From the sequence record MW388002.1: a DNA stretch of 64,000 bases. One strand, 5' to 3'. Below, piece by piece: positions 8,333 through 30,975 of the stretch (within the stretch, counting starts at the first letter, position 1; each line of letters opens with the position of its first letter). The notes under the pieces are model-generated. The model was not told the DNA's origin. It saw nothing but the letters and a program-made list of their open reading frames with translations, and made no database searches. This DNA is from Acinetobacter phage Mokit. Position numbers and translations under genes: made by a program.

Positions 8333-8338
8333 TCTTAT

Positions 8339-8367
8339 GGCTCTCTATAAATAAAAATATAGAGAGC
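8339..8367 (+). promoter_or_regulatory. hairpin (GGCTCTCTATA/TATAGAGAGC) with an embedded late promoter TATAAATA (8346-8353)
   Basis: 10-bp perfect inverted repeat right after the gp18 stop. The TATAAATA motif spans the stem and loop. Confidence 0.5.
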
Positions 8368-8383
8368 TAATATTGAGATAGAG

Positions 8384-8968: not shown

Positions 8969-8977
8969 GGAAATATA

Positions 8978-9469: not shown

Positions 9470-9478
9470 GTGAAAATC

Positions 9479-9510
9479 CGATTGGTATAAATAACTTTAT
9501 ATCAATCGGA
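9479..9510 (+). promoter_or_regulatory. hairpin (CCGATTG…CAATCGG) whose loop carries the late promoter TATAAATA (9487-9494)
   Basis: 7-bp inverted repeat flanking an exact TATAAATA, ~37 nt upstream of the gene 20 ATG. Confidence 0.5.
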
Positions 9511-9530
9511 ACCACTCTGTAGGAGGATTT

Positions 9531-11084
9531 ATGCAAGATGTGAACGATTTGAAAATGTTCGCCTTTTGGCAAAAAGTTGACACCACAGAATACGATCAGA
9601 TTATTAACGATAAAGCAGAGTCTATCACCGCTCCAAAATTTGATGATGGCGCTACAGAGATTGAATCATCTGACGCATCATACAATGGTGTATTTAGACA
9701 ATTATACGGTAATCAAGACCCTAATGTTACTTCGACAAAGGAATTGATTAACACTTATCGAAGCATGCTTAATAACTATGAAGTCGATAATGCCGTACAA
9801 GAAATTGTTTCAGATGCAATCGTGTATGAAGATGGCTATGATGTAGTATCTCTTGATTTAGAACAAACAAAATTTTCGCCTAATATTCGTGAAAAAATAT
9901 TTGAAGAATTTTCAGAAATTCTCAATATGCTTAATTTCCAGCGTAAAGGTTCTGATCATTTTAGACGTTGGTATGTAGATTCACGTATATTTTATCATAA
10001 GATTATTAATCCGTCACGCCCAAAGGATGGCATCATAGAGTTAAGGCGTTTAGATCCACGTCAAGTTCAGTTTATACGTGAAATTGAAACTGTTACGGAA
10101 AAAGGGGTCAAAGTAGTAAAAGGTTATAAAGAATATTTCATTTATGACACGCAAAATGACACATACAACTGCAATGGTAGACAATTTGCCGCAGGTTCTA
10201 AAGTTAGAATCCCGTATTCTGCAATGGTTTATGCTCATTCAGGGCTTGTGGATTGCTGTGGCAAAAACATTATCGGCTATTTGCATAGAGCAGTTAAACC
10301 AGCCAACCAGCTGAAATTGCTTGAAGATGCAATGATGATTTATCGTCTTACTCGCGCGCCCGATCGTCGTGTTTTTTATATTGATACAGGTAACATGCCG
10401 GCTCGCAAAGCAGCACAACATATGCAACACATTATGAATTCTCATCGAAATAGAATTTCATATGATGCATCTACAGGAAAAATTAAAAATCAGGCGAATA
10501 TGATGGCCCTCACCGAGGACTATTGGCTACAACGTCGTGATGGTAAAGCAGTTACCGAAGTTGATACATTGCCGGGCATGTCTGGTATGAATGAAATGGA
10601 TGACATTTTATACTTCCGTAAAGCACTGTACATGGCACTTCGGGTACCATTATCTCGAATACCCGATGAACAGTCTCAAAATGTGTTTGATATGAGCACA
10701 GCCATATCACGTGATGAGCTTAGATTTGATAAGTTCATTATGGAACTTCAACATAAGTTTGAAGAAATTTTCCTTAATCCACTCAAAAGTAATTTGCTTT
10801 TAAAACGCATTATTAGCGAAGACGAGTGGGAGAACGAAATAAATAATATTAAAGTTGTATTCCACAAAAATTCCTATTTCACTGAAATGAAAGAAATGGA
10901 AATTATGGAACGACGTGTCAATGCACTTAATTTAGTTGAACCTTATGTTGGCAAATATATTTCTAATCAAACTGCAATGAAACAATTCTTGCATATGACT
11001 GATGAAGAAATTGCGGCTGAGCGTAAAATTATTGACAAAGAGCTTAAAGATAAAGTATATAACCCACCAGACGAGGAATTATAA
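9531..11084 (+). CDS. 20: portal vertex protein gp20
   Basis: Long identical blocks with T4 gp20 ([64 protein letters not shown]). Confidence 0.95.
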
Positions 11085-11299
11085 TGGACGATATTATTCA
11101 AGCCATTGCTTCCAACGACCTAGTAAAATTTAAGCGTTGCTTTAATGAAGCTATGGCAACAAAAGTTGGAAAAGTCTTACAAGAAGAAAAACTACAAATT
11201 GCTAAATCTGTCATGATTGAAGGTGAAGAAGCTGCCCTTGATGATGAAGACGATGAAGATGAAGGCGATGACAATCCTGAGCCAGATGAGGACGACTAA
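11084..11299 (+). CDS. 67: prohead core protein gp67
   Basis: 71 aa with an acidic C-terminal tail; position after gene 20. Confidence 0.75.
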
Positions 11300-11727
11300 T
11301 GTTGATTATTGTTGAAAACGAATTAGTTTTTGATGATGTTTCAAATCTCCTTCCTGAAGCAACAAAACAATATGAACAGCTCTCAAAACTTTTTGAGAAA
11401 GACGAAATTGTTAAAATTGTTGAAAATTTAGGTAAAACAGAGCCAGAACTTGCAGTTGCAATTGGCTCTCTTGTAGAAGATGTACCTTTAAATGAATTCA
11501 TGGTAAAACATGTAAGTGCAAAAGGCGAACTCACAAAAACTAAAGATCGCAAAACACGTGAACGTAATGCGTATCAAACTACTGGGTTATCAAAATCTGA
11601 ACGGCGCCGTATTGCTCGCAAGGCGGTAAAAACAAAAAAAGCGAATCCTTCCGGTCAGATTCGAGCTCAAAAGAAAATTAAAAAAGCTCGTGCTAAACGC
11701 AAGAGTATGTATGGACTTAAACCATGA
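11299..11727 (+). CDS. 68: prohead core protein gp68
   Basis: 142 aa with a basic C-terminus; synteny. Confidence 0.75.
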
Positions 11728-12371
11728 CTAATGAACCTCAATTGTTAATTGAGCATTGGGGCCAGGCAGCAGAAGTTACGGATGTTTTAACTAATCAGCT
11801 GGACGAGTCTTTAGGCAAAGGATTGCCACCAGGTTTGTATATTGAAGGTATCTTTCTTCAGGCAGATGTTGTCAACAGAAATAGAAGATACTATCCTAAG
11901 GCTGTTCTCGAAAAGGCTGTTGATAAGTACATCAAAGAACAAGTCAATACAAACCAGGCATTAGGCGAATTAAACCATCCGCCAAGAGCAAATGTCGACC
12001 CAATGCAGGCCGCCATTATTATCGAAGATATGTGGTGGAAAGGCAAAAATGTGATGGGACGTGCTAGAATTATTGAAGGCGACAATGGAGCCGGAGATAA
12101 ATTGGCAGCACTCATCAGATCAGGTTGGAAGCCTGGAGTATCAAGTCGAGGACTTGGTAATGTCAAAGATTCTGGACGTGGATATAATATCGTCCAAGAA
12201 GGATTCCGTCTAACAGTAGGTGTTGATGTTGTTTGGGGCCCTAGTGCGCCAGATGCATGGGTAAAACCGATGGAAATTACTGAAAGCGTAAATGAGGATG
12301 CAACTGTAGCAACAAATCAGAACGCTGATTCAGCATTCAAGAAATTAATTAGTAACTTGAGTGCGTTATAA
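11724..12371 (+). CDS. 21: prohead core protease gp21
   Basis: 215 aa (T4 212 aa); position; …LGELNHPP… region resembles the T4 gp21 serine protease. Confidence 0.85.
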
Positions 12372-12401
12372 ATAAAATTATATTAAAAACAGGAAATCAA
12401 A

Positions 12402-13229
12402 ATGCTGAAAGATCAATTACTCAAGGAAGCTCAAGAAATTGAAGTTTCTGTAGAATTAGACGGTATTTTTGAATCAGTAGAACTTTCTGAAGAAATGCAA
12501 CAGAATTTTAAAACTGTATTCGAAACAGCCGTTAAAAAGAATGCTTCTGCGCTAGCTGAATCTCACATCTTAGCCATTGCTGAAAAGGCTGATGAACGTG
12601 TTAATGAAGAAGTTGAAGCACAAGTTAAAGCAGTTGAAACAAAACTAGTTGAAGCCGCTGACAAATTGTTTGAACATACAGCAAAAGAATGGTTAGCTGA
12701 AAACAAACTTGAAGTTAGTCGTGGTATTAAAGCCGACCTATTCGAATCAATGTTCGAAGGCCTTAAATCACTAGTTGTAGAACATAACATTGTACTTCCT
12801 GAAGAATCTGTTGACGTTGTTACTGAAATGGAAGAAGAACTTCAAGAACACAAAGAAGAAAATTCTAAGTTGTTTACTGCTTTGACCGAAACACAAGATG
12901 AATTAAAATCATTAAAACGTGAAGTTGCAGTAAATGAAGCTACTAGCGAATTGACTGAAAGCCAAAAAGAAAAAGTTCATAGCCTAATCGAAGGTCTTGA
13001 ATATGGCGATACATTCGAAAGTAAATTAGCTGCTATTGTTGAAATGGCTACTGCTACTAAGACTCCTGCGCCGATTGTTGAAAGCGTTGAAGGACGTTCA
13101 GAACCCGAAATAAATAATACTAACAATGATGCATCTGGTTTGAATTACATTGCTGAAGAACACCCAGCCGAAGAACCTGCACCAAATGCAAAAATCAACT
13201 CTTATGTAGCAGCTGCAAAACGCTTCTAA
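12402..13229 (+). CDS. 22: prohead core scaffold protein gp22
   Basis: 275 aa, highly acidic and alpha-helical with low complexity; synteny. Confidence 0.8.
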   Translation: MLKDQLLKEAQEIEVSVELDGIFESVELSEEMQQNFKTVFETAVKKNASALAESHILAIAEKADERVNEEVEAQVKAVETKLVEAADKLFEHTAKEWLAENKLEVSRGIKADLFESMFEGLKSLVVEHNIVLPEESVDVVTEMEEELQEHKEENSKLFTALTETQDELKSLKREVAVNEATSELTESQKEKVHSLIEGLEYGDTFESKLAAIVEMATATKTPAPIVESVEGRSEPEINNTNNDASGLNYIAEEHPAEEPAPNAKINSYVAAAKRF

Positions 13230-13255
13230 TAAAATTTCCACAAAGGTAATAAAAC

Positions 13256-14836
13256 ATGTCTCAATTCAAACAAAAAACTAAAGAACAATTACTAGAAACT
13301 TGGGGAGATTTCCTCACAGCTGAAGGCCTTCCGGTAATTGACGAAAGCCGCCACGTAGTAATGGCAAAGATCTTTGAGAACCAAGAGCAAGATTTCCTTA
13401 CTGGCACAGAATACCGTGATCCCGAAATCGTTAAAGCATTCTCTGGATTCTTGACTGAAGCAGAAATTGGTGGTGACCATGGTTACGATGCAACAAATAT
13501 TGCTGCTGGTCAAACATCAGGTGCTGTAACTCAAATCGGTCCTGCTGTAATGGGTATGGTACGTCGTGCAATTCCTAACTTAATCGCATTTGATATTTGT
13601 GGTGTACAGCCTTTAAACGGTCCTACAGGCCAAATCTTCTCGTTACGCTCAGTATATGGTAAAGATCCATTAGCTGCTGGTGCTAAAGAAGCTTTCCACC
13701 CAATGCTATCTCCGGATACAATGCATTCAGGTCAAGGCGCTGCTGAAGCATTCCCAGTTGCTGCAGCAGGTGATGTACTTGCAATCGGTGACATTCGTCG
13801 TCATGACTTTGCTGATACCGGCCGTGTATACATTCAAGCAGTTAAAGCAGTAACAGTTGATGCAGATGCAACGACTCCTGAATTGTTAGACATCGAAGTT
13901 AAAAAACTAATGGAAGCAGGTACAATTGCCGAAATTGGTGAAGGTATGGCTACTTCGGTTGCTGAACTTCAAGAAGGTTTCAATGGTTCACAAAATAACC
14001 CTTGGAACGAAATGGGTTTCCGTATCGACAAACAATCAGTTGAAGTTAAATCTCGTCAATTAAAAGCTCAATACTCAATCGAACTTGCACAAGATTTGAA
14101 AGCTGTTCACGGTATGGATGCTGACGCTGAATTAGCTGGTATCCTTGCAACAGAAATTATGCTTGAAATCAACCGTGAAATCGTTGATTGGATCAACTTC
14201 TCAGCACAAGTTGGTAAAACTGGCTTCACACAAACAAGTGGTTCTAAAGCAGGTGTATTTGACTTCCAAGATCCGATCGATGTTAAAGGTGCACGTTGGG
14301 CTGGTGAAGCTTACAAAGCGTTGTTAATCCAAATCGATAAAGAAGCTTCAGAAATTGCTCGTCAAACTGGTCGTGGTATTGGTAACTTCATTATCGCTTC
14401 TCGTAACGTTGTAATGGCTCTTGCTCAAGTTGATGAACGTGTTAGCCCTGCCGCTCAAGGTCTTGCATCTGGCATGAACTATGACACAACTAAAGCAACA
14501 TTTGCTGGTGTACTTGGTGGTCGTTACCGTGTATATATTGACCAATATGCTCGTCAAGACTACTTCACAGTTGGTTTTAAAGGTTCAAGCGAATTGGATG
14601 CTGGTATTTACTACAGCCCATACGTTCCATTAACTCCATTACGTGGTTCTGATCCGAAAAACTTCCAACCAGTAATGGGCTTCAAAACTCGTTATGCAGT
14701 TGGTATCAACCCATTTGCAGATACATCAGCTCAAGCTCCTGCAGGTAATCGTCGTATTAGCAATGGTATGCCGACTATCGAGAATTCAGCTGGTAAAAAT
14801 GGTTACTTCCGCAAAGTTTTCGTTAAAGGAATCTAA
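13256..14836 (+). CDS. 23: major capsid protein gp23
   Basis: 526 aa; HK97-fold T4-type MCP; position. The strongest terminator in the window lies downstream. Confidence 0.9.
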   Translation: MSQFKQKTKEQLLETWGDFLTAEGLPVIDESRHVVMAKIFENQEQDFLTGTEYRDPEIVKAFSGFLTEAEIGGDHGYDATNIAAGQTSGAVTQIGPAVMGMVRRAIPNLIAFDICGVQPLNGPTGQIFSLRSVYGKDPLAAGAKEAFHPMLSPDTMHSGQGAAEAFPVAAAGDVLAIGDIRRHDFADTGRVYIQAVKAVTVDADATTPELLDIEVKKLMEAGTIAEIGEGMATSVAELQEGFNGSQNNPWNEMGFRIDKQSVEVKSRQLKAQYSIELAQDLKAVHGMDADAELAGILATEIMLEINREIVDWINFSAQVGKTGFTQTSGSKAGVFDFQDPIDVKGARWAGEAYKALLIQIDKEASEIARQTGRGIGNFIIASRNVVMALAQVDERVSPAAQGLASGMNYDTTKATFAGVLGGRYRVYIDQYARQDYFTVGFKGSSELDAGIYYSPYVPLTPLRGSDPKNFQPVMGFKTRYAVGINPFADTSAQAPAGNRRISNGMPTIENSAGKNGYFRKVFVKGI

Positions 14837-14862
14837 GGTTCCTTTAACCTTAACTTAAAAAG

Positions 14863-14890
14863 AAAGGAGTCTCATATGACTCCTTTTTTA
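14863..14890 (+). terminator. rho-independent terminator after gene 23 (AAAGGAGTC-TCATAT-GACTCCTTT + T6)
   Basis: 9-bp perfect stem plus a TTTTTT run. Confidence 0.8.
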
Positions 14891-14902
14891 TTGATCTCTG
14901 AA

Positions 14903-14910
14903 TATAAATA
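14903..14910 (+). promoter_or_regulatory. late promoter TATAAATA for gene 24
   Basis: Exact motif between the terminator and the gp24 start. Confidence 0.55.
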
Positions 14911-14956
14911 TTATAGAAAAATCAATAATGGTAAGTGGTCTATATAGGAAAACAAC

Positions 14957-16225
14957 ATGAAATATATCGATAAAATTATTCGAGAGTCTACAACATCGCA
15001 AGATAATGTCGATTCTAGACCTTCGCTTTTAGCATTAACAAGAGCTACAACAAATTTAGTTTATCACGATTTAGTCGCTACACAATATACAGATCAGCCT
15101 ATTGCCGCTTTATATGGTGTAAAATATTTGAATCCTAATAAAGAATTAACATTTGTTACAGGTGCAACTTATTCAGGTGCAATCGGCACAGAAGATAGAA
15201 AAACCATGCCTGAGTTGACTGGAGCTACTCCTATGTCAAAAGGCACTTTATTCAAGTATACCGATGTCGTCTTCAAGGCACTAGTAGATAATCCTTTTGC
15301 TGGAACTACAGAAACAGACGTATTTGATATTTTATCAGAAGCGGTTGCGGCAAACAATGTCAGAATGGTTCCAGAAGCCGCAGATACCGCCAAATTTGAA
15401 GGAGTAGAATCCGACATCGCTGAAGCGTCATTTGAAATTAATAAATGGCAAGCTCCAGTAAAATCTAGAAAATTTAAAGCTGAATTAACGGTTGAACTTG
15501 CGCAAGATATGGAAGCATCAGGATTTGATGCACCTGAAACCATTGAGGATTTACTTGCCACTCAAATGGCAGAAGAAATCAACAAAGACATTTTACAATC
15601 ATTGGTAACAGTATCATCAAGATTTAAAGTGAAAGGTGTTTCTGATAAAGGAGTTTTAGATTTATCTGATCCTAATATCCCTTCAACAACACAAGGTCGT
15701 GAGTTATACCGCTTCATCTGCGAAATGAATGCTCAAATTCAAAGACAAACTTCATATTCAGCCACTTATGTTGTAGCAAGCTCTAGAGTTGCAGCACTGT
15801 TAACGGCTTCAGGGTGGTTGAAAAAAGAAGATGACCAACCTTACGCATCTGCAGGAATTCTTAATAATGGTTTAGTACTTTATTGCGACAACAATAGCCC
15901 AGTTGAATATGTTGTTGTTGGAGTTAAAGCTGAATACGGTGATAATGAAATGGTAGGATCTTTGTTCTATGCTCCATACGCCGAAGGTTTTAATAAAGAA
16001 GCTGATCCTACTGACCACATTGGAATGTATAAAGTTATCAATGATTCTAGCAGCTTACAACCACGAGTTGCTCTATTGGTAAGATATGCTCTGTGCGTAA
16101 ATCCATACACAGTAGGTTTAAATGATCAAGAAGCTCGAGTTGTTGATGCGAGCGACATGGATCAATTCGCAGGTCAAAGTAAAATGTCAGTTTTATTAGG
16201 TTTAAAATTGCCTAAGTTGGTATAA
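14957..16225 (+). CDS. 24: head vertex protein gp24
   Basis: 422 aa (T4 427 aa); paralogous to gp23 (shared …ELAQD… block); synteny. Confidence 0.9.
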   Translation: MKYIDKIIRESTTSQDNVDSRPSLLALTRATTNLVYHDLVATQYTDQPIAALYGVKYLNPNKELTFVTGATYSGAIGTEDRKTMPELTGATPMSKGTLFKYTDVVFKALVDNPFAGTTETDVFDILSEAVAANNVRMVPEAADTAKFEGVESDIAEASFEINKWQAPVKSRKFKAELTVELAQDMEASGFDAPETIEDLLATQMAEEINKDILQSLVTVSSRFKVKGVSDKGVLDLSDPNIPSTTQGRELYRFICEMNAQIQRQTSYSATYVVASSRVAALLTASGWLKKEDDQPYASAGILNNGLVLYCDNNSPVEYVVVGVKAEYGDNEMVGSLFYAPYAEGFNKEADPTDHIGMYKVINDSSSLQPRVALLVRYALCVNPYTVGLNDQEARVVDASDMDQFAGQSKMSVLLGLKLPKLV

Positions 16226-16242
16226 TATAAAAATTAAACACA

Positions 16243-16270
16243 AAAGGGACTCATATGAGTCCCTTTTTAA
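16243..16270. terminator. bidirectional terminator between gene 24 and hoc (AAAGGGACTCATATGAGTCCCTTT)
   Basis: Palindromic 10-bp stem with an A-run on one side and a T-run on the other; lies between convergent genes. Confidence 0.75.
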
Positions 16271-16280
16271 GGTTTTGATA

Positions 16281-19200
16281 TTAGTAAATTATTCCAATAT
16301 CGATTTGATTCTTTGTGATAATCCAACCGTGTCTAGATTCTTGAATTTCGACATTAGGATAATCTTGAATCATTTTAGCAATTGTCAATAATTCACAGGC
16401 ATATTTTAATCCATTAGCTTCAGGATTTTTCCAATCTATTCCTTTGGCAACAGCTTCCTGTAATTCATCCAATACCCAATATCCACACCAAATAAATGAT
16501 GAGTCTCTTGAATCAAGTGGATGAATGTGTCTAATACAATCGCCTTCGATTGGAGGACTCGCAACTGAAATCTCTACACTAAGTTCAATAACTCTATCCA
16601 AATAATCAGGATGCTTAAATGTTACTGTAACACTAGATGTAGATTTTCCTGGAGCAGTAGGAGTAACTGATACCGCCTGTGTAGTAGCTCCATTGTTCCA
16701 AAGATATGTTATCGAAGTCCCATCAACAGATGTCATCGCATCAACTGTAGCTTCATAAGATTCACCCAAAGTAATAGATTCTTTATCAACTGATATATTA
16801 GCTACTCCTTGTACAACAATCTTCTCAACTTTGATTTTGACACCATTTGATGAAACAATCGCTTCATCATAATCTGGATGAGTTGCAGTAACCACACAAT
16901 TTAGTGTATAGTCGCCGGCCAAATGCTCAGATCTAGTAACAGTTTTTGAAGTTTCTCCTGTTGACCATTTATATGCAAATGTTGATCCATTTGGAGCATT
17001 TTTAACATCGACACTAACACTGAAGGATTCATCCTGCTTTACTGTTGTTTTAGTTGCACTAGCTTCAGCAGTAATACTCATTACCATTTTATTGGCAGTC
17101 ATTTCAACTTCTTTTGTCAGAACTACATTATCAGCACCCTCTGCTACAGTGGTAGAGGTTACTTTAATTTTATGTTTTCCTGCTACAGTTGGAGTATAAT
17201 CAAGGTAGTTTGTTGTCGAAGGATTTTTCGTTCCATCAACTTCCCACGCATATGTTGTGCTAGAATCTGCGGGTGCACCTTCTACTAAAGCTGTAAATCT
17301 TTGTGAGTCCTTTATTGTTACTACTGCGTCAGTAGGTAACAGACTTAATGTAATGGCCATTTCTCGTTTTTCCGTTGTTACGTTAAATTTTTCATCTAAT
17401 ATTAAATCTCCATCATAATCAGGATGGCTAAGTCGAGCTTTAGTAGAAATCTCATGTTGTCCTGGATTTACCGCTGCCACTGTGAATGAGTCCTTAATAT
17501 CAGAGAGTGATATAAATTTATCATCGATAAACCATGACACAGAATCAACAGATAATTGATCAAAATTTTCTACTAATTCTTTTCCTACTATTGAAGCGCT
17601 AACAATTAGATTTTCACCCCATTTCAGTAATGTCTTATTTGGAACTAAATCTAAACTAAGATTAGGCCAAGCCTTCCTATTAATATCAATTGTAGATTCA
17701 TGTGAACTCACAGGAGTATCATTAAATCCATCTTTCTTAACTATAGCGGATGCCGATATTGTATAGTTAAAATTTTCGGCTTTCATTGTTATCTCAGGAG
17801 ATGTCACAATTTTGCCATTTATTTTCCAAGTGATATTCTCAGTAGTTGCTCCATCAGGTAAATTAGTCCACTTAGGTTTAATCGTGAAAGTCTGATCCAA
17901 AGTTATATTAGTTGGAACAGTTTCAAAATCCAAAATGGGTGTAGGATCAATAGGATTGTCTAGCACCTCTAAAATAATATCAGATTCTGCTACAAGAGGA
18001 ACGGCATCCACATACATATCATCAGTAAATGTATGTCTAATTTTACCGACTAATTGTTTAGATTCATTCGGTAATGTATAAGAGAATTTTCCATTTACTG
18101 CTTCAACTACAGGATTGCCTTGGAAGTCAATAAGTTCATATTTACCCTTTTTAGATAAAGTTTCAATCTCTTGGGCATACTCTGCTGGGGTATCTTTTAT
18201 GTAATCCAATAAATTAATAACATCAAATTCAATAAGATTACCTTTGGCACCAGAGAAGTAGAAATTGTTTGAAGCTGTTAAGAATTTACCATCTACTCTA
18301 AAAATACCTTTAGCATTCCACTCAGGTTGTTTTCCAATAGTGACAGTTTTAGAAATCTCAAAATCTTGTTGTTCAAAATATGGATTCTCTTTTGATTTAC
18401 CTGATACTTTAATCTCTACCGTTTTACCGCATAAAGAAGGTTCGATATATTCCATTGAATAAAAATTAGGAGTAGTTGGAATTCCTGAGAAAACTTCTAC
18501 ACCGTCTATAGTTACTTTTGCGACATCCTTATCTGAAATTTCAAATGGATAATTTTTATAATCAGGAACACCAGAATATGTACCGTTTACACCAATGCTT
18601 TCACCTGATCCGTGACCCCAATACATTTTTTCAAAGTAATATAGGCCAACGATTTCAGCTGAATGTGGCGCAGCAATCATCTTAACAAATTCAATTGGAA
18701 CTTCAGGTGATGTTACAGTAACACCTTCATAGTCATCAGATTTAACGGATACTATGCACTTGACGTTATATGTGCCAACTTCTTTCCTAGTAAAAATTAG
18801 ATCCTTTTCACTTCCGGCGTGGTCACCATTAACAGACCAATCATAAGATATAGATACTCCCGCAGGTGCTCCAGTTACATTGGCAGTAAAATTAGCAGAT
18901 GAAGTGATCTCTGCTGAAGGAGAACTTGAATTTACAGTTACTGAAATTCCATCCATTGTACTTTTTACACTGTTTACTACAGTTTCATCAGTTATAACAA
19001 TAGTTTCGGAACCTTTGGTAACAGTAACTTCAACTTTAAATGTATCAGTTCCCACTTTCTCATATGGATATGTTACAGGTTTATCTTCAGAAAATAACAC
19101 TCCATTTTTATACCATTTTTGAGTGGCAGTATAAGGTAATGCAACACCAGTAACAGTATAATCTAATACGGCAGATTGACCTATACTAATAGTAACATTA

Positions 19201-19559
19201 CGTGGAGAAATAGATACTTTTCCTCGCAAAGGTTCATATACAGTAAAGGTCTCTGAAATATTTCTAGAAATATCATAGTTACCAGAATCTTTTGCATAGA
19301 TTTGATAATCTACTCTCCATTTACCTAATTCATCTAAAACAGGAGATTCTCTGAAAACAGTCTCTCCACTGGAATCATCATTATTAATTGTAAGAGACAT
19401 ACTAGTTCTCTTACCAGAAGGCGAATAATACGCCTGAACAACTTGGTTCACCGAATCGCCGTAATATTTATTCCAAGAGACTTTAGTATTAGCAGTTTTG
19501 CCTTGGGCTATCCTTTTATCTTCAGGTAACCCAACAATTTTTAAATATGATAATGACAT
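16281..19559 (-). CDS. hoc: Hoc-like outer capsid protein, expanded to ~1092 aa with multiple Ig-like domains
   Basis: The C-terminal capsid-binding domain (HPLDSRDSSFIWCGYWVLDELQ…GIDWK…DYPNVEIQESRHGWIITKNQIDIGIIY) aligns with the T4 Hoc C-terminus (HPLPHRSSAYIWCGWWVMDEIQ…). The body consists of roughly 90-aa Thr/Ser-rich beta repeats with a recurring (S/H)PDYD motif. Confidence 0.85.
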   Translation of the reverse strand: MSLSYLKIVGLPEDKRIAQGKTANTKVSWNKYYGDSVNQVVQAYYSPSGKRTSMSLTINNDDSSGETVFRESPVLDELGKWRVDYQIYAKDSGNYDISRNISETFTVYEPLRGKVSISPRNVTISIGQSAVLDYTVTGVALPYTATQKWYKNGVLFSEDKPVTYPYEKVGTDTFKVEVTVTKGSETIVITDETVVNSVKSTMDGISVTVNSSSPSAEITSSANFTANVTGAPAGVSISYDWSVNGDHAGSEKDLIFTRKEVGTYNVKCIVSVKSDDYEGVTVTSPEVPIEFVKMIAAPHSAEIVGLYYFEKMYWGHGSGESIGVNGTYSGVPDYKNYPFEISDKDVAKVTIDGVEVFSGIPTTPNFYSMEYIEPSLCGKTVEIKVSGKSKENPYFEQQDFEISKTVTIGKQPEWNAKGIFRVDGKFLTASNNFYFSGAKGNLIEFDVINLLDYIKDTPAEYAQEIETLSKKGKYELIDFQGNPVVEAVNGKFSYTLPNESKQLVGKIRHTFTDDMYVDAVPLVAESDIILEVLDNPIDPTPILDFETVPTNITLDQTFTIKPKWTNLPDGATTENITWKINGKIVTSPEITMKAENFNYTISASAIVKKDGFNDTPVSSHESTIDINRKAWPNLSLDLVPNKTLLKWGENLIVSASIVGKELVENFDQLSVDSVSWFIDDKFISLSDIKDSFTVAAVNPGQHEISTKARLSHPDYDGDLILDEKFNVTTEKREMAITLSLLPTDAVVTIKDSQRFTALVEGAPADSSTTYAWEVDGTKNPSTTNYLDYTPTVAGKHKIKVTSTTVAEGADNVVLTKEVEMTANKMVMSITAEASATKTTVKQDESFSVSVDVKNAPNGSTFAYKWSTGETSKTVTRSEHLAGDYTLNCVVTATHPDYDEAIVSSNGVKIKVEKIVVQGVANISVDKESITLGESYEATVDAMTSVDGTSITYLWNNGATTQAVSVTPTAPGKSTSSVTVTFKHPDYLDRVIELSVEISVASPPIEGDCIRHIHPLDSRDSSFIWCGYWVLDELQEAVAKGIDWKNPEANGLKYACELLTIAKMIQDYPNVEIQESRHGWIITKNQIDIGIIY

Positions 19560-23303: not shown

Positions 23304-23702
23304 TCACTCTGATCTATCACCGCTTAATTGTATTTTAATTTGTTCTAATGTGTCAGGGTTATCTAGAATGCTAAATGTAACCGTAACAATTATTGCGTTA
23401 TTGTCATATTGTGCTTGCACTGCAACATTAAGTCTAACTATACGAGGTTCGTAGGTTCTAATTGCAGATGTTATGCTTTTTTCTACTGTGTTGACAGTCA
23501 GTGGTGACATATTTTCAAAAAGCGCGTTGCCAATGTCGCATCCAAATTCTGGATCAAATGGGCGAGAGCCTTTAGGTGTGGTAATAATTCCTAATAAGGA
23601 GTTTTTAACTGCTCTTGCTCCTACAGACGCTGCGACATCCATATTCCATGCACGAGTAAGTTCAGGAGAAATATCCGTGTAGAGGTCATTAATATTTTGC
23701 AT
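23304..23702 (-). CDS. 25: baseplate wedge protein gp25
   Basis: 132 aa, as in T4. SLLGIITTPKGSRPFDPEFGCDIGNALFENMSPLT is nearly identical to T4 gp25. Confidence 0.95.
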   Translation of the reverse strand: MQNINDLYTDISPELTRAWNMDVAASVGARAVKNSLLGIITTPKGSRPFDPEFGCDIGNALFENMSPLTVNTVEKSITSAIRTYEPRIVRLNVAVQAQYDNNAIIVTVTFSILDNPDTLEQIKIQLSGDRSE

Positions 23703-24346
23703 TATAAAATCTCGACAAATTCTTTGAAGCCTTTAATAACATGTACATGAGCCTTGCCGCATTGTGCGCAAGTTATTGGTACTACTAAAACCGGCATAGG
23801 AGCTAATAAGAATTTTTTGATATAATTAATATCATCTTCTGTTATTGCATTGTACAAGTCTTCAATTTCTAATTCATTTAAGTCTTCAATCAAAATTTTC
23901 TCATTGCCAACGTAAATTGATTCTATAGACTTTGCAATCATTGTAGGAACGTCATCGTCATCCCATAGTTCAGGCCATTTAAACGCGAGTTTAAATTTTC
24001 TAAATGGGTACAATTTTTCTAATGAAGATTCACCATAGTCAATTTGTGCTTTAGACACATCTAAATTGACTGGCTGTGTATGTCCACACTCACAAACATA
24101 ATCTTGTTTGACTTCACCAAAATGTTCAGAATTTGCAATAAGATTTATGAGAACTAATTCCGCATCATGTTTAGGAAGGTTTGTTAAGCCAGTACACTTA
24201 TTAATTATTTCCGTGTAAACAGATTTCATTGCATCAGATGTCGGAGAATCCTTAGAAATAATTAGTTTAGTGTAGTCGTGTAGCGTATATGATTTACATT
24301 TGACAAGTTGGCCGTTTAATTTAACATCAAAAGTTTTTTCAAACAT
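23702..24346 (-). CDS. 26: baseplate hub protein gp26
   Basis: 214 aa (T4 208 aa); synteny; co-oriented with gene 25 as in T4. Confidence 0.75.
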   Translation of the reverse strand: MFEKTFDVKLNGQLVKCKSYTLHDYTKLIISKDSPTSDAMKSVYTEIINKCTGLTNLPKHDAELVLINLIANSEHFGEVKQDYVCECGHTQPVNLDVSKAQIDYGESSLEKLYPFRKFKLAFKWPELWDDDDVPTMIAKSIESIYVGNEKILIEDLNELEIEDLYNAITEDDINYIKKFLLAPMPVLVVPITCAQCGKAHVHVIKGFKEFVEIL

Positions 24347-24411: not shown

Positions 24412-25167
24412 ATGGCTAATATTATCAGATGTAGATTGCCTGATAGCATTCATCGATTCAAGCCGTTTAACGTAGCTGACTATAGAGATTTCTTATTAGT
24501 TCGAAATGATATGATGACAAAAGATGCATCAGAACAATTAGAAATAGTTAACGAGTTAGCTGAAGATTATTTCGGTGAATATCCAAAATCCTGGCAACAA
24601 TACTTATTTCTAAATGTGTTTACTGGGTCTGTTGGCAAAACTAAAGTTCCTATTATTTTCGAGTGTCCGACTTGCGGCAAAACACAAAAACGATTATTTA
24701 ATTTATCTCAAGATGAATTAGTTGCGCCTTTAGTTAAATTAGATGATACTACAGAATTAGAGTTCAAATTTCCGGACAAAGTTTATTCTGACAATGCAAA
24801 GCTTGTTCTTGAAAATATAGACAATGTAAAATATAACGGCGAAGAGTACAAATGGGAAGACTTAGATACTGACACTCAAGACACTATTATCGAGATGTTA
24901 GATTTTGAAAAGTTTGAGCATATCGTCAAAAAGCTGAAGCCATTGCACTTTGAAATGAATATATCGTGTTGTGAAAGTCATGTTATAGTATTTGACGACT
25001 TGGCATCGATTTTTAGACTTTTAATAAATCCAGATGAAGTATTTCCGTTTTATGAGATCAACAACATTTTGATCAAAAATAATTATGATTGGAATTCTAT
25101 AATGAATATGCTGCCGGCTGAAAGAAGTATTGCTCTTTCAATGATAGAAAAGGATAGTAAACAATGA
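24412..25167 (+). CDS. 51: baseplate hub assembly catalyst gp51
   Basis: 251 aa (T4 249 aa); CxxC pair; synteny. Confidence 0.75.
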   Translation: MANIIRCRLPDSIHRFKPFNVADYRDFLLVRNDMMTKDASEQLEIVNELAEDYFGEYPKSWQQYLFLNVFTGSVGKTKVPIIFECPTCGKTQKRLFNLSQDELVAPLVKLDDTTELEFKFPDKVYSDNAKLVLENIDNVKYNGEEYKWEDLDTDTQDTIIEMLDFEKFEHIVKKLKPLHFEMNISCCESHVIVFDDLASIFRLLINPDEVFPFYEINNILIKNNYDWNSIMNMLPAERSIALSMIEKDSKQ

Positions 25168-26747
25168 CAATGCAAAAACCCGGGTATCCTAACGTAAGCA
25201 TAAAACTATATGAAGATTATGATGCTTGGAAAGAAAATAGATTTGTTGAATTAGCTGCCACATTTACTACTCTCACATTAAGAGATGGGTTATATGGTAT
25301 CAATGAAGGAGTTCTCCAGTTTTATGACTCCAAGAATTTGCATGCTAAACTCAATGGCGAACAAATAATTCAAATATCGCTATCAAATGCAAATTCCAAA
25401 GATGTTATTACACGTATCTATGGGTGCAACGATACTGCAGTATCAGTTGATGAAAAGGGAGACAATATACTTGCATTTAATTTAAGACCATTGCATGTTG
25501 TCGAAGATGTTAAATTTAGCCGAGCATTTTTTGCTAATGCTACTGAATCTATTGAGACAATGATAAAATCGATTTATAACAATAAAGCACAGCTTGCGCC
25601 TAAAGTTAAAGGTCTTAACGTATATGTTCCTCGAGTGGCTTGGGTAAGCACGATTACCGATTATTTCGAATATGTAAGAGAAGTTGGCCTTTCTGTTGAA
25701 TCTGAAACTCATCCATTTGTATGGGAAGATTTCACAGGCATTAATATTTCTGATTACAAATTCATGATTGATCAGAAGCCAAGAGTCATGGTAGTCGGTG
25801 ATCCAGCACAAATTGGTGCGTATATCGCAAACATGAAAGAGCAATTGGCTTATGACTTTACATGGCTAGCTAAAACTAACAGAAATGTCAGAAATCCATT
25901 AGAAAATGTTACAGTGTATAGTCATTCATTTAACGATAAAGAAATTCAACGAATTTCAATCGGAGAAGGAACTAATTCTGTTGTTGTATCTCGTTCAGGC
26001 GGATATTCGGAAATGACATACCGTAATGGATATGAAGAAGCATTTCGATTGCTAACAATGGCTCAATATGACGGATATGCAACATGTAAGGTTATAGGTG
26101 ATTTTACTTTGACGCCGCTCCAAAAAATCGTATTTGGCGACAAGAAGGGACAATTTAAAACTGAATTCTATATCGATGAGGTAGTTCATGTTATTACAAA
26201 CAACTCATCTGAAACTCATCTTTATGTTTTTACAAACGGGAAGGATTTAGTTCCAGTAAATATCGAAAAAATAAAAAATGAAATTGAGACAATTACACCT
26301 CCTTCAGACACCGTTCAGCCTGAAGCATCTGCCGACAAGAAAGGTGCACAATGGGATTTAGATAAGCTCGCCGAAGTTGTCACAAAGAACGCACAAGGGC
26401 GTAAATCCACAGGTGAATGTGCGTTATATGTTCGTAAAGCACTCCAAGCTGCACAACTTGAAAATTTCTTTGCTGGTGGCCTAGGGAATGCAAATGAAAT
26501 GCCACCGCGTCTAGTCCAAATGGGGTGGATTGCAGTCGGTCAAAACGTAAAAAATGTAAAGAAAGGCGATATCGCAGTTTTCCAAAGAACAAATACACGC
26601 CTTGGTCAGAAATATGGACATGTTTGTATTTTCACAGGTACACAATGGGTCTCTGATTTTATCCAATCAGGAGTTCAGCCAAATAGAAGTGATAATTTAA
26701 CATATACAGTATATAGAGCACGTTATGGGTATAGTGCAGGAGGATAA
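25164..26747 (+). CDS. 27: baseplate hub protein gp27 with a C-terminal CHAP-type peptidase domain
   Basis: The first ~390 aa align with T4 gp27 (RPGYPN, NRFVELAAT, IVVSRSG.YSEMTYRNGYEEA, HLYVFTN). An extra ~135 aa (GECALYVRKAL…GNA…KGDIAVF…YGHVCIF) carries the Cys/His CHAP signature. Confidence 0.85.
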   Translation: MTMQKPGYPNVSIKLYEDYDAWKENRFVELAATFTTLTLRDGLYGINEGVLQFYDSKNLHAKLNGEQIIQISLSNANSKDVITRIYGCNDTAVSVDEKGDNILAFNLRPLHVVEDVKFSRAFFANATESIETMIKSIYNNKAQLAPKVKGLNVYVPRVAWVSTITDYFEYVREVGLSVESETHPFVWEDFTGINISDYKFMIDQKPRVMVVGDPAQIGAYIANMKEQLAYDFTWLAKTNRNVRNPLENVTVYSHSFNDKEIQRISIGEGTNSVVVSRSGGYSEMTYRNGYEEAFRLLTMAQYDGYATCKVIGDFTLTPLQKIVFGDKKGQFKTEFYIDEVVHVITNNSSETHLYVFTNGKDLVPVNIEKIKNEIETITPPSDTVQPEASADKKGAQWDLDKLAEVVTKNAQGRKSTGECALYVRKALQAAQLENFFAGGLGNANEMPPRLVQMGWIAVGQNVKNVKKGDIAVFQRTNTRLGQKYGHVCIFTGTQWVSDFIQSGVQPNRSDNLTYTVYRARYGYSAGG

Positions 26748-27300
26748 AATGGGAAATATTAAATTAGATTTAGTTCCAAAAACTAAAGTTATTGAAGTTA
26801 ATGGTAAGCAAATAAAAGTACCTAAGCTTGGACTAAAACATAGAATGCTCATAAAAGACGCTTCAAACCATGAAGAAACTATGAAAGTGTTATTAAATTA
26901 TATTCAGCCTAATTTGTCTTTAGCTGAACGAGATATATTAACACTTCATCTATTAGAGTACAATGGGAGATTAAAACAATCTGTTGAAAAGGATGGATTT
27001 GTATATAAGCTCGATGATGTTTATATTTGCCAACAATTAAAGTTTTCTTATGGTGAGTATGAATTTAAATTTAGATCGCCATCGTTTGAATTGCTTAAAG
27101 GGCCATTAGATATTCTTCTAAATCAATGTTGTGTAAGTGTGAAGCACAAAGGCAAGAAAATTGATACTCCGGATTTTATGCAAATGCCGGCATTTGTGCA
27201 TAGATGGGGAGAAATGATAACAAATACAGTCGCAATAAAGGGCCCTAATGGTACTGAAATAAAAGGATTGTATAAAATAGTGGAGCTATTAAGTGAATAA
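26725..27300 (+). CDS. 28: baseplate distal hub protein gp28
   Basis: ~180-190 aa; position after gene 27. Confidence 0.7.
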   Translation: MGIVQEDKMGNIKLDLVPKTKVIEVNGKQIKVPKLGLKHRMLIKDASNHEETMKVLLNYIQPNLSLAERDILTLHLLEYNGRLKQSVEKDGFVYKLDDVYICQQLKFSYGEYEFKFRSPSFELLKGPLDILLNQCCVSVKHKGKKIDTPDFMQMPAFVHRWGEMITNTVAIKGPNGTEIKGLYKIVELLSE

Positions 27301-28999
27301 TACGTTTTCTCAAAATAAACTTCCGTCTGAGCAAACCAGTCTCAGACGAGCTCCTAAGCCTTCTGAAGACGCTCCGGCAAATGATGAGAATTTTGATACA
27401 GTGCCTGAACCGGAGGCAATTGATGGCGCAAGTATTTCAGGAATTGAAAATAATACTTCAGCTCAAGTAGAAGTGTCAAAACTATCATTGGGGCTTCAGG
27501 ATTATCAAACTCAACAACTACAAGAAATAGCTAATTCAGCTGTTGAAATCTCATCAAAACTTAGCATACTAAGTGATCGTCTTAAGCAGAAATATGAAGC
27601 ATCCATACCTGTAGCTGACGCGCCTATTGCAAATGCAGATTCAACATCAGAGGTGTTAGCAAATAAATTAAAGCCTGAAGCCAAAGAACAAGTTGCACCT
27701 GCGCCTATTGAAATTGCTCCAAAAGAGAAAAAACCATCAGAAGATTTATTATCGGGTGGCCCTAAAGTAGATGGTGCACCTAATGTTGGGCCTGCATTAG
27801 TAGTAAACGCTATAAGTTCGGTCAAGGGTGCAATAGTAGAAGGATTTAAAAAGTCTACAAGTATCGCGGATAAAATTTCTGGGATGCTATTTAAATTTAC
27901 GGTATCTCAAGCCGTAGGTGCGGCTAAGATTGCTCTAGCTATTGCTGCGATAATTCTTGGTATCGACTTGCTAAAAATTGCATGGCAGGTCTGGGGCGAC
28001 AAAATCATGAAAAAATTCGAAGAGTGGACAGAAACTTTTTCGAAATGGTGGGATGGGTTTAAAGAATGGTCATCATATTTCTCTGACATGAAAGATTCAT
28101 TTGAAGGCATGAAAGGCGATTTGACCGGCATTAGAAATGCATGGGAATCCGGCGATTGGCCTGCATTAGCTTCAGCAATAGGCACTGCGTTCATAGATGG
28201 AATCAAAACACTTAGTGGAATACTTGATAGAGTAATTACAAAATTAATCTCAACTATTTTGGATAAATTAGGGTTCTCTAAAGCAGCAAAAGCTATTGAA
28301 GCTGAAGGCTTGCAAAATTACCAAAACATGACAAATAATAGATTGTCTCCTGAAAATCAGAGAAAACTAGCCGAAGAGCAACTCAGACGTGAAAAATCGG
28401 ATGGGCTCACTCCTACTCAACGCGGTAAGACATCATTTTTACCAGACTCTTGGAGAAAAAGCTTAGGTTTAATTTCAAAGGATGAGTATTCGCAAATCCA
28501 AGCAGAAAAGAAAGATCAAGCGGCTCGTAGAGGTTTAAGCCATGAAGATCAGATAAAGGCAATTGCGGCATCAAATGAAGCAAGAGAATCTATAGCAAGA
28601 TTTAAAAATATTGCAGATAACGTCAATCCAAATGACGCAAAACAAGTTGCAGAAGCCGATAAATACAAGAAAGAAGCACAACAGTATATTAATAGTCCAG
28701 GATTAGCGCTAGTCCCAAGTGTCAAAGCTGAATTGCAGTCACAATTAGATAATTATAAAATGAAGTCTAGTACAAATACTGCAGTTAAACCTGATAAATC
28801 TGCTAATACTAAAGATACTCAACTTGTCCAGAACATTAAAGTTGCAGAAGCTCAAAAGGCTGCAGCACAAACCAAAGCTTCAACATCCACTGCTAATGTT
28901 CAAACAAACATTGTTAAAACCAATAAGAGTTATAACGTCCAAACTCCAATAACTGGAACTAGAGCTCCAGGCGTATTTAGAGCTACAGGCGTCAATTAA
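27293..28999 (+). CDS. 29: baseplate hub / tail length determinator gp29
   Basis: 568 aa (T4 590 aa); low-complexity and helical; synteny. Confidence 0.75.
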   Translation: MNNTFSQNKLPSEQTSLRRAPKPSEDAPANDENFDTVPEPEAIDGASISGIENNTSAQVEVSKLSLGLQDYQTQQLQEIANSAVEISSKLSILSDRLKQKYEASIPVADAPIANADSTSEVLANKLKPEAKEQVAPAPIEIAPKEKKPSEDLLSGGPKVDGAPNVGPALVVNAISSVKGAIVEGFKKSTSIADKISGMLFKFTVSQAVGAAKIALAIAAIILGIDLLKIAWQVWGDKIMKKFEEWTETFSKWWDGFKEWSSYFSDMKDSFEGMKGDLTGIRNAWESGDWPALASAIGTAFIDGIKTLSGILDRVITKLISTILDKLGFSKAAKAIEAEGLQNYQNMTNNRLSPENQRKLAEEQLRREKSDGLTPTQRGKTSFLPDSWRKSLGLISKDEYSQIQAEKKDQAARRGLSHEDQIKAIAASNEARESIARFKNIADNVNPNDAKQVAEADKYKKEAQQYINSPGLALVPSVKAELQSQLDNYKMKSSTNTAVKPDKSANTKDTQLVQNIKVAEAQKAAAQTKASTSTANVQTNIVKTNKSYNVQTPITGTRAPGVFRATGVN

Positions 29000-29008: not shown

Positions 29009-30100
29009 ATGAATTTTAAAGAATTAGATACTAATTTTTTGGCAAAGGCTGGGTCGATCATTTCGGCCGGCCAAAGCCAAAAGTCTAAAGAGACTCAAGT
29101 AAAAACATTAACCGCACAATATCCTGCTGAACGTTCTTCTGGATATGATAGCACTGGGGATTCTAGAGAATTCGATCAATTGTATCAAAATGGATTATTG
29201 TTTACCGCATACGAGTATTCTTCACGAGTAACACCAAACTTACGAGATATGCGTACTGCTATGCAGAAACAATATAACATTAGTAAAACTATTGAAAAGA
29301 TTAGCACGGCAGTAATGAGTGTCCGTGGTGGATCCACGTCAACCGAATCAGATTTAGCAAAAAAACCTGTAGCAAACTTATTGTTGCCACGTTCAAAAAG
29401 CGACTCAGATATGACTAATCATAAGTTTAATGATGTAGGAGAATCGCTTGTTACACGTGGCAATGGTTCAATTACAGGCATTCTGTCGAACATGGCATCT
29501 ACTGCCGTATTTGGGGCTATTGAATCCGTCACACAAGGTATTATGGCTGACAGTGGCGAGCAAATTTATAATACAGCACGTTCTATGTATGCCGGTGCAG
29601 AAAACAGAACAAAAACATACACCTGGGAATTTACTCCACGTACACCAGAGGATTTGACACAAATTCTTAAAATATATGAAATTTTTAACTTTTTCTCATA
29701 TGGTATTACTGGAAATTCTCAATTTGCAAAAGACGTCAAAAAACGAATTGATGATTGGTACAAAACTACAATTATCAATAAAGTAAATGAAGAAGTTGGA
29801 GCAAAGACTCAGAAAACCTTTATGGAATCGGTTACTTCGTTTTTGTCAAACGTGATTGTTGTATCAAATCCTACAGTATGGTTTATACAAAACTTTGGCA
29901 CTCAATCAAAGTATGACGGCATCGCAGATATATTTGGCCCGGCTCAAATATCGAGTATTCGTTTTGATAAAGCCCCTGATGGGAATTTCAATGGTTTATC
30001 GATTGCCCCAAATATGCCATCTACATTCATTCTTGAAGTTACCTTCAGGGAAATCTTAACTCAAAACCGTGCATCAATTTATGGAGAAGATGTTCTATGA
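29009..30100 (+). CDS. 48: baseplate tail-tube junction protein gp48
   Basis: 363 aa (T4 364 aa); synteny. Confidence 0.75.
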   Translation: MNFKELDTNFLAKAGSIISAGQSQKSKETQVKTLTAQYPAERSSGYDSTGDSREFDQLYQNGLLFTAYEYSSRVTPNLRDMRTAMQKQYNISKTIEKISTAVMSVRGGSTSTESDLAKKPVANLLLPRSKSDSDMTNHKFNDVGESLVTRGNGSITGILSNMASTAVFGAIESVTQGIMADSGEQIYNTARSMYAGAENRTKTYTWEFTPRTPEDLTQILKIYEIFNFFSYGITGNSQFAKDVKKRIDDWYKTTIINKVNEEVGAKTQKTFMESVTSFLSNVIVVSNPTVWFIQNFGTQSKYDGIADIFGPAQISSIRFDKAPDGNFNGLSIAPNMPSTFILEVTFREILTQNRASIYGEDVL

Positions 30101-30975
30101 AAAATACTGCTATTGCATTGACATTAGACGAGTTTAATAGTCAAATTGCAAATCATGATTTCCAGCGGACCAACATGTTCTCTATGCATTTTGCGACTAG
30201 ACCTTCATCTAAGTCGCAACAGTATCTTGGACAGATTGCAAACCGAAGAGACGATAGTATTGCTTCTACGTTAGATGCACTAGGAATCACCAATGAAAAT
30301 ATACAAAATGCTATCACTTCAATCATAACTATCGGGACACAAAAGGTCATTCGAAAGGCAGGTGTATCTAAAGTACTTATGGGTGCGATGACAAATCGTG
30401 TAGTTCAGTCACTTTTAGGTGAACTTAATGTAGGTACATATTTACTCGAATATTTTGATATGGCCTTTCCTACATCAGGCTTATTAGTTCAATCGTGTAA
30501 AATACCTGACAATCATCTAAATTATGAAATGGATCGCCAGCATAATGCTCCAAGTGTAAAAATCACAGGCCGAGACTTTGAGCCACTTGTAATTACATTT
30601 AGAATGGATTCAAAGTCTGCAAACTATCGTGCCATGATAGATTGGGTTAATGCAGTAGAAGATCCTATTACTGGGCTTCGTGGGTTACCAATTGATGTAG
30701 AAGCTGACATTCAAATCAATTTGCACGGGCGTGACGGATATCCACACACTGCATATATGTTTACTGGATGTATCCCTATGGTAGTAGGTGGTCCACAGTT
30801 ATCGTATGAAGATAATAACCAAATAACTACATTTGATGTAACTTATGCATATAGAACTATGCAAGTCGGTGCAATTAGTCTGAATGCCGCAAAAGAATGG
30901 ATGGAAAATTCAGCAATAGGCTTGCAAAAAACTCAATTGGATACAAATATGAACTTTACATCAAGATTGGCATAA
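30097..30975 (+). CDS. 54: baseplate tail-tube initiator gp54
   Basis: 292 aa; start coupled to the gp48 stop; synteny. Confidence 0.75.
   Translation: MKNTAIALTLDEFNSQIANHDFQRTNMFSMHFATRPSSKSQQYLGQIANRRDDSIASTLDALGITNENIQNAITSIITIGTQKVIRKAGVSKVLMGAMTNRVVQSLLGELNVGTYLLEYFDMAFPTSGLLVQSCKIPDNHLNYEMDRQHNAPSVKITGRDFEPLVITFRMDSKSANYRAMIDWVNAVEDPITGLRGLPIDVEADIQINLHGRDGYPHTAYMFTGCIPMVVGGPQLSYEDNNQITTFDVTYAYRTMQVGAISLNAAKEWMENSAIGLQKTQLDTNMNFTSRLA

Follow-up and report, generated by a model that had tools for sequence, protein, structure and literature searches.

Gene 27 of Acinetobacter phage Mokit lies in the stretch of phage DNA that was analyzed here, 64,000 nucleotides of sequence record MW388002.1 (hereafter, the window). 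The architecture of its product is close to certain: a T4-type gp27 baseplate hub protein is followed by a linker and by a C-terminal domain resembling the peptidase Tae3. The gene (25164..26747, plus strand) is one open reading frame (ORF) of 527 amino acids with an ATG start, no internal stop codons, and its stop codon at 26745-26747, exactly the single fused ORF that had been proposed in a preliminary description made from the DNA letters. T4 is the textbook model of contractile injection; its gp27 serves purely as a structural adaptor, and it has no wall enzyme other than the lysozyme of gp5. In T4-like phages generally, gp27 had been taken to be enzyme-free. The evidence presented below makes it likely that the C-terminal domain of the Mokit protein is an active wall peptidase of the infection stage, so that, in addition to the gp5 lysozyme, another enzyme able to cut the wall is probably present at the tail tip of the phage.

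The gp27 body and the linker

The hub module comprises residues 1-373 (25164..26282, plus strand) and contains all four domains of T4 gp27. Both Pfam families of the hub were matched from end to end, Phage-tail_1 (PF09097) by residues 4-198 (E = 8e-77; 257.9 bits with a cut-off of 27; profile positions 1-196 of 196) and Phage-tail_2 (PF09096) by residues 201-373 (E = 6e-70; 235.1 bits with a cut-off of 25; profile positions 1-173 of 173). Using phmmer, residues 3-381 were found to be collinear with residues 4-383 of the 391 residues of T4 gp27 (1k28_D) at an E-value of 7e-150, in agreement with the earlier claim that the N-terminal part is a complete T4-type gp27. An AlphaFold2 (AF2) model of the full protein as a monomer had a mean predicted local distance difference test (pLDDT) score of 86, with a value of about 90 for the gp27 body. 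Foldseek superimposed this body on T4 gp27 (9mkb) with a root mean square deviation (rmsd) of 1.4 Å and a target-normalized template modeling (TM) score of 0.97; over 9mkb and 1k28 together, the values were 1.4-2.1 Å and 0.96-0.97 (target-normalized). Gene 27 is 99 % identical to CPT_Melin_205 of phage Melin, which is annotated as "baseplate hub subunit," and the same identity was obtained with phages AbTZA1 and PhT2. All three are Acinetobacter phages (Straboviridae, Twarogvirinae, Hadassahvirus).

Residues 374-397 (26283..26354, plus strand) form a flexible linker rich in Pro, Ser, Thr, Asp, and Glu, which is characterized by low pLDDT and near-neutral evolution. Disorder was predicted by AF2 at about residues 374-390 (pLDDT 43-58), and both the length and the sequence of the linker vary among the homologues.

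Identity of the C-terminal domain

The remaining residues, 398-527 (26355..26744, plus strand), make up a Tae3-like domain with a predicted papain fold of the cysteine peptidase type. The only solved structure matched by phmmer was that of Tae3 (4hz9_A), at an E-value of 2e-6. With a profile built from the domain family, the match to 4hz9 reached an E-value of 1.5e-28 (103 bits, residues 7-118 of 119), while the next solved structure, a CHAP endolysin, followed at an E-value of 0.03. The domain was also modeled separately, as a fold search with the full-length protein was swamped by matches to gp27 and VgrG. When a broader alignment was used, AF2 modeled the isolated domain with a pLDDT of 92.8, and the top Foldseek match of this model was again 4hz9_A (E = 6.6e-8; TM 0.71 when normalized to the query and 0.82 when normalized to the target; rmsd 2.8 Å), followed by CHAP endolysins and Tae4. 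The structure 4HZ9 is that of Tae3, a type VI secretion system (T6SS) amidase effector of Ralstonia pickettii, with a catalytic dyad formed by C23 and H81 and a Ser as the third residue. The bond specificity of Tae2 and Tae3 has been established, although Tae3 goes unmentioned in a review of the T6SS that was consulted.

The relation to the Pfam family CHAP (PF05257) is looser. This family was matched with 25.1 bits in the whole protein and with 28.3 bits when the isolated domain was used (gathering cut-off 26), and several of the homologues carry a precomputed PF05257 match. Tae4 was a weak second match in Pfam. A scan of NCBIfam gave nothing significant, only sub-threshold matches to TIGR02594. 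Taken together, the sequence matches and the predicted fold place the domain in the Tae3 clade of the CHAP/NlpC-P60 superfamily, with a borderline position relative to canonical Pfam CHAP. The clean CHAP signature reported in the preliminary description can be kept as far as the superfamily and the Cys and His residues are concerned; the assignment to CHAP proper is borderline, and "GNA," one of the motifs cited for it, is not a recognized CHAP signature.

Catalytic residues, conservation, and selection

All four motifs named in that description are present, GECALYVRKAL at residues 417-427, GNA at 441-443, KGDIAVF at 467-473, and YGHVCIF at 484-490. The two residues that it had put forward as catalytic coincide with those of the dyad of Tae3: Cys419 in GECALYVRKAL (codon TGT, 26418..26420), the predicted nucleophile, aligns with C23, and His486 in YGHVCIF (codon CAT, 26619..26621), the predicted general base, aligns with H81. 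Ser497 and Asp498 (26652..26657) are part of a WVSDF motif, in which Ser497 aligns with S92 of Tae3 and is a candidate for the third residue of a "CHS" triad as in that enzyme. All three sites are on the plus strand. In the AF2 model of the domain, C419 (domain residue 30) opens the helix formed by residues 30-41 and H486 (domain residue 97) opens the strand formed by residues 97-101, a predicted placement that corresponds to a papain-like topology.

The predicted active site is conserved almost without exception. Among the clusters of gp27 fusions (n = 36), Cys, His, and Asp498 were present in all 36 and Ser497 in 34, the only two clusters in which it is changed to Ala both being VanY-bearing variants. 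In the other domains of the family (n = 179), Cys occupies the column in 163 of the 169 sequences that are aligned there, the other 6 having Ala, and a further 10 sequences have a gap at this site. For His, Ser, and Asp, the count is 178 of 179 in each case. The Ala of "GNA" (A443) is invariant across the family.

Selection on the three parts of the protein was compared in seven phages by the Nei-Gojobori method. Because synonymous sites had reached saturation in many pairs, the ratio of nonsynonymous to synonymous substitution rates (dN/dS) was taken from unsaturated pairs only. It was 0.06-0.19 in the domain, similar to the 0.03-0.17 of the gp27 body. For the linker, values of 0.4-0.9 were obtained in most measurable pairs. 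Purifying selection on the domain combined with near-neutral evolution of the linker is what would be expected if a functional domain were attached by a tether.

Distribution of the fusion and of the domain family

The preliminary description had suggested a search for long gp27 homologues in T4-like genomes, and such homologues proved to be common. The fusion was present in every Acinetobacter T4-like match, 71 records of phages from several genera, among them 133, Acj9, Acj61, Ac42, ZZ1, Lazarus, and KARL-1, with lengths of 518-534 residues. At the DNA level, an uninterrupted ORF of this size was found in 50 phage records at an identity of at least 83 %, and at the protein level, the fusion occurs in 34 clusters (clustering at 90 % identity) down to an identity of 51 %. 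The gp27 proteins of enterobacterial phages are shorter, with 367-406 residues. In one NCBI source, the cluster that contains the exact gp27 type (P0016) goes under the name "LysM domain protein [Acinetobacter baumannii]"; the label looks misleading and apparently concerns a phage protein deposited in a bacterial assembly.

A word-indexed search with the domain alone yielded just 15 proteins, and an exhaustive search, which returned 885 matches, was needed to reveal the family. The nearest relatives outside gp27 (45-56 % identity) are located in proteins of 1,000-2,900 residues, where their partners are VgrG3-like C-terminal domains, tail-lysozyme domains, or a tail-fiber PHROG family. In Campylobacter phage CP220, a Tae3-like domain with an identity of 29-36 % is carried by CPT_0185 (3769-7248), a protein of 1,159 residues. 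Its gene lies directly upstream of that for a gp48-like tail tube cap, the position of the gp29 tape-measure protein. CPT_0185 is annotated as "hypothetical phage membrane protein" and as "endolysin" in some records of related Campylobacter phages, and long arrays of 85-97-bp repeats are present just downstream of it. A BFVD protein annotated as "tail tape measure" also matches the domain family. In a fragment of 194 residues (P0008), the domain directly follows the end of an Rhs/YD-repeat core (…YYRARYYDPGSGRFASEDPI…); the family therefore serves as the tip of polymorphic toxins as well.

Free-standing homologues with an identity of 33-42 % are encoded by conserved genes on the chromosomes of Moraxellaceae, with housekeeping genes (lpxC, bolA) around them, and have an N-terminal hydrophobic leader resembling a signal peptide. 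A recent capture of the domain from the host was rejected, as these proteins are more distant from the gp27 domain than the large multidomain proteins mentioned above (33-42 % vs 45-56 % identity). A record named "Acinetobacter phage MD-2021a" (CAKLQF020000020.1) was considered as a further phage architecture and was also rejected; it is a bacterial chromosomal contig with dusA, acnA, a LysR regulator, and an integrase. Its 169-residue "Uncharacterised protein" (6803-7312) is a free-standing Acinetobacter homologue of the C-terminal domain of gp27.

The most elaborate variant was found on a divergent T4-like metagenomic contig (ENA ERZ27239165 k141_232034, 1-18235). The gp27 homologue of this contig (8001-10235, 744 residues) consists of the hub, the Tae3-like domain, and a VanY D-Ala-D-Ala carboxypeptidase domain, and in its gp5 (4407-5927), the OB domain is accompanied by an SLT transglycosylase that replaces the GH24 lysozyme. 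The occurrence of both enzymes behind this hub suggests that the C-terminus of gp27 is a docking site for wall enzymes. The β-helix of gp5 is a separate ORF of 237 residues on this contig, and the 53-5-6 cluster adjoins the 51-27-28-29 cluster, unlike the arrangement in T4 and Melin. The tail-tip, tape-measure, and periplasmic occurrences of the family together suggest that its members attack peptidoglycan from within the periplasm and that it has repeatedly been recruited to tail-tip or ejected proteins of phages.

A probable second wall enzyme beside gp5

Gene 5 lies outside the window, for which reason gp5 of Melin was used as a proxy. The Melin protein contains Gp5_OB, Phage_lysozyme, and β-helix regions, and the catalytic motif of T4 lysozyme is kept in it (MLRGDEGVKNTVYWDHLGYPTIGIGH; E, D, and T are present). 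Replacement of a lost gp5 lysozyme by the gp27 domain was therefore rejected. With an intact gp5 lysozyme, the gp27 domain would be a second enzyme rather than a substitute, which fits the proposal in the preliminary description of an additional, non-muramidase hydrolase at the hub.

The enzymatic activity of the domain, its bond specificity, its residence in the virion, where in the baseplate it is placed, and when it acts are all inferred, and the following sequence of events can be proposed. The Mokit gp27 would be an ordinary T4-type hub subunit that continues, over a tether of approximately 24 residues, into a catalytically competent cysteine peptidase of the Tae3 type. Being a trimer, gp27 would place three copies of the peptidase in each virion beside the three lysozyme domains of gp5. 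In VgrG, a gp27-like module runs straight into a gp5-like OB fold, and from this continuity the C-terminus of gp27 should emerge near the collar formed by the OB and lysozyme domains of gp5. Contraction of the sheath would push the gp5/gp27 tip across the outer membrane into the periplasm, where the tethered peptidases would attack the peptidoglycan of Acinetobacter at its peptide stems or cross-links. The gp5 lysozyme would simultaneously cleave the glycan strands, and the local hole made jointly by the two enzymes would admit the tail tube. The recurrence of the family in proteins of the infection stage or in proteins that act in the periplasm was counted as support for a function as a wall peptidase.

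Several points weigh against this proposal. The evidence on gp5 was taken from Melin and not from the phage in the window. The Pfam CHAP score is borderline and the NCBIfam scan gave no assignment. The identity between the domain and Tae3 is only about 29 %, so the bond that is cleaved may differ from that of Tae3. The inner baseplate of T4 is crowded, and three extra domains of 15 kDa would have to fit into it. T4 manages with the gp5 lysozyme alone, which leaves the need for a second enzyme unexplained. Finally, the part of the literature that was covered yielded no assay of activity, no proteomic data on virions, and no structure of the baseplate for the gp27 fusion.

Relation to known systems

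The closest functional precedent is the hub of Staphylococcus phage 812/K, in which gp27-like channel domains are followed by a C-terminal CHAP domain, the "cleaver." Its activity has been demonstrated in zymograms, and until triggering it is covered by the weld protein. In both cases, a trimeric hub subunit homologous to gp27 and a C-terminal papain-fold peptidase with Cys and His are joined in one chain, and the cleaver of 812/K has been proposed to digest the wall in front of the tail tube. The Staphylococcus system differs in its Gram-positive host, its Herelleviridae baseplate, its canonical CHAP triad of Cys, His, and Glu, an extra saposin-like clamp domain, and the weld cap, whereas the Mokit domain belongs to the Tae3 clade (Cys-His-Ser/Asp), acts, if active, on a Gram-negative host, and is accompanied by a gp5 lysozyme. 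A Foldseek comparison of the domain with the 812 structure 9eum gave a weak match (E = 0.33).

With Tae3, the domain has the motifs GxCAxYVRKA, GD(V/I)xV, GH, and W(V/I)SDFxQ in common, in addition to the aligned Cys, His, and Ser. Tae3 reaches the Gram-negative periplasm by way of a contractile injection machine, as is presumed for the gp27 domain. Tae3 itself, however, is a free cargo effector of 119 residues that kills competitors and has a cognate immunity protein, Tai3, while the gp27 domain is covalently attached to a phage hub and presumably serves to open the wall locally for entry of the DNA. No gene for a Tai3-like immunity protein lies next to gene 27, where the neighbors are gp51 and gp28. 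As neither a T6SS context nor an adjacent immunity gene is present, the domain is to be considered a homologue of the effector and not a T6SS effector. Since gp27 is a homologue of the N-terminal module of VgrG, the fusion nevertheless resembles an "evolved VgrG." That it is the actual phage counterpart of such a protein, with an amidase effector domain of the T6SS type hard-wired to the hub, is considered rather unlikely.

Other phages carry wall hydrolases on subunits of the hub complex that act in tail penetration. T4 has its lysozyme in gp5, and in the ViI-like phage CBA120, an NlpC/P60-CHAP domain is located within gp5 in the place of the lysozyme. In these two phages, the enzyme is part of gp5 and is the single enzyme of the hub, whereas in the phages discussed here, the GH24 lysozyme of gp5 is kept and gp27 adds a chemically different activity. 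The Tal (tail-associated lysin) proteins of siphophages, to which the work on phage 812 also refers for homology, and many tape-measure proteins are comparable in that a gp27-like N-terminal hub or an ejected tail protein bears C-terminal or internal peptidoglycan hydrolases, but they belong to other tail types and meet other host envelopes.

The fusion had also been seen before. In GenBank records of phages 133, Ac42, and Acj9 from 2010, gene 27 is described as "fused to (conserved) Acinetobacter hypothetical protein"; these notes assign no function, and later records give just "baseplate hub." No paper that gives the gp27 fusion an enzymatic identity or a function was found in the part of the literature that was covered, which included the genome papers of DLP1/2 and KARL-1. 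The architecture had been called unfamiliar in T-even phages, and it is indeed unusual for T4-like phages, but 812/K and the GenBank notes of 2010 are precedents. What sets the fusion apart from the precedents is that it is sited on gp27 of a T4-type phage infecting Gram-negative bacteria, that the lysozyme of gp5 is present and intact as well, and that the domain belongs to the Tae3 clade. The fusion is real and conserved and probably functional, but it does not open a new category and is not wholly surprising.

Alternative roles of the domain

The domain could have been kept as a noncatalytic module, either binding peptidoglycan and anchoring the hub in the wall or acting as a structural plug during assembly. 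Inactive CHAP folds do occur in baseplates, the weld protein's "clip" domain in phage 812 being an example, and a borderline CHAP score combined with a catalytic function predicted from sequence would be compatible with such a role. Inactive CHAP-like domains such as the 812 clip, however, typically lack the Cys and His, which in the gp27 fusions are retained in each of the 36 clusters, down to an identity of 47 %, in alignment with the proven dyad of Tae3. A noncatalytic role is therefore considered unlikely.

A second alternative is that the domain is removed by proteolysis during maturation of the baseplate, or is missing from virions for some other reason, and acts only inside the infected cell, for instance as an aid in folding or assembly. 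The linker is predicted to be exposed and disordered, and T4 gp5 itself is cleaved during assembly. Proteomic coverage of residues 398-527 was not found in the literature that was covered. A role confined to the cytoplasm makes little sense of a conserved peptidase active site, the domain is under purifying selection equal to that on the structural body, and the enzyme in the hub of the related phage 812 remains in the virion. This alternative is regarded as quite unlikely.

The domain might, thirdly, be an auxiliary enzyme for late lysis, or cause lysis from without at high multiplicity, instead of assisting in genome entry. Its PHROG matches include families labeled "endolysin," and its fold is also that of CHAP endolysins. 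It has, however, neither a signal sequence nor a linkage to a holin; a covalent bond ties it to a hub subunit that is essential and is encoded in the late baseplate operon; and a separate candidate for the lysis enzyme exists in Melin (CPT_Melin_138, with an SLT domain). On this evidence, a lysis function is very unlikely. A missed stop codon or a frameshift, raised in the preliminary description as a way in which the two parts might prove to be separate, can be discounted almost entirely, because the same unbroken gene recurs across the 71 records and the 34 clusters of metagenomic origin, with at least 70 genomes independently sequenced between 2010 and 2025, and its stop codon adjoins the start of gp28 as in the T4-like gene order.

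Implications

If the domain is an infection-stage wall peptidase, the C-terminus of gp27 would be another place, besides gp5, at which wall hydrolases are docked in the T4-like phages of Acinetobacter. The enzyme sets seen at these hubs are the Tae3-type peptidase, the peptidase with VanY in the metagenomic relative, and a gp5 in which the lysozyme is swapped for SLT, and this variety suggests that the combination of enzymes is selected by the wall of the particular host. The parallel between phage hubs and the VgrG-effector fusions of the T6SS would be strengthened as well. Were the fusion, on the rather unlikely reading given above, a phage counterpart of an "evolved VgrG," periplasmic immunity proteins of the Tai3 type could block infection at the stage of wall penetration; such blockers might be T6SS immunity genes of the host or superinfection-exclusion factors of phages that are analogous to Spackle of T4.

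A possible rationale for a peptidase on gp27 is offered by modification of the wall. O-acetylation of peptidoglycan impairs muramidases, to which an enzyme directed against the peptides would be indifferent. The domain is present in T4-like phages of Acinetobacter and Campylobacter, and each of the two genera figures in a list of bacteria that are known or predicted to make O-acetylated peptidoglycan. On the "evolved VgrG" reading, a peptide-cutting enzyme could adapt T4-like phages to such lysozyme-resistant walls, a hypothesis that draws on just two host genera.

The phages concerned include AbTZA1, PhT2, KARL-1, Melin, and others with therapeutic use against A. baumannii, a priority-1 pathogen of the World Health Organization. 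In these phages, the domain may be a determinant of the efficiency of infection on stationary-phase or otherwise modified walls. With its 130 residues, it would also be a compact candidate enzybiotic against A. baumannii.

The hub gene cluster and other features of the window

The order of the hub genes is that of T4, with gp25 and gp26 in divergent orientation followed by gp51-27-28-29-48-54. The gp26 hub subunit is encoded on the minus strand (23702..24346), and the other genes that were mapped are on the plus strand. The gene for the hub assembly protein gp51 (24412..25167) overlaps the start of gene 27 with its stop codon, and that for the distal hub subunit gp28 (26749..27300) begins right behind the stop codon of gene 27. 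Two in-frame ATG codons are available for gp28, at 26725, which overlaps the final 23 nucleotides of gene 27, and at 26749; the latter is the start in the annotation of Melin and has its ribosome-binding site within the end of gene 27. The tape-measure/hub protein gp29 (27293..28999) follows in the cluster, which ends with gp48 and gp54, the tail-tube cap and the initiator (29009..30975).

An ORF of 1,092 residues is located at the position of hoc (16281-19559, minus strand); it is annotated as a head outer capsid protein in Melin and matches T4 Hoc at an E-value of 3e-10. It is about three times as long as T4 Hoc with its roughly 376 residues, which points to a capsid decoration protein that has been greatly expanded. 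Between the genes for the tail sheath gp18 (6356-8332) and the tail tube gp19 (8978-9469), an ORF of 194 residues is present (8384-8968, plus strand) that is hypothetical in Melin. According to the Melin annotation, a gene for a homing endonuclease of 210 residues (44518-45150, minus strand) lies between the ribonucleotide reductase genes for the large (45160-47571) and the small subunit (43366-44517). Among the tRNA genes clustered in the near-identical phage Melin, beyond the part that the window covers, one is annotated as "tRNA-Pyl" (Melin positions 11063-11137), which may encode a tRNA of the amber-suppressor type.

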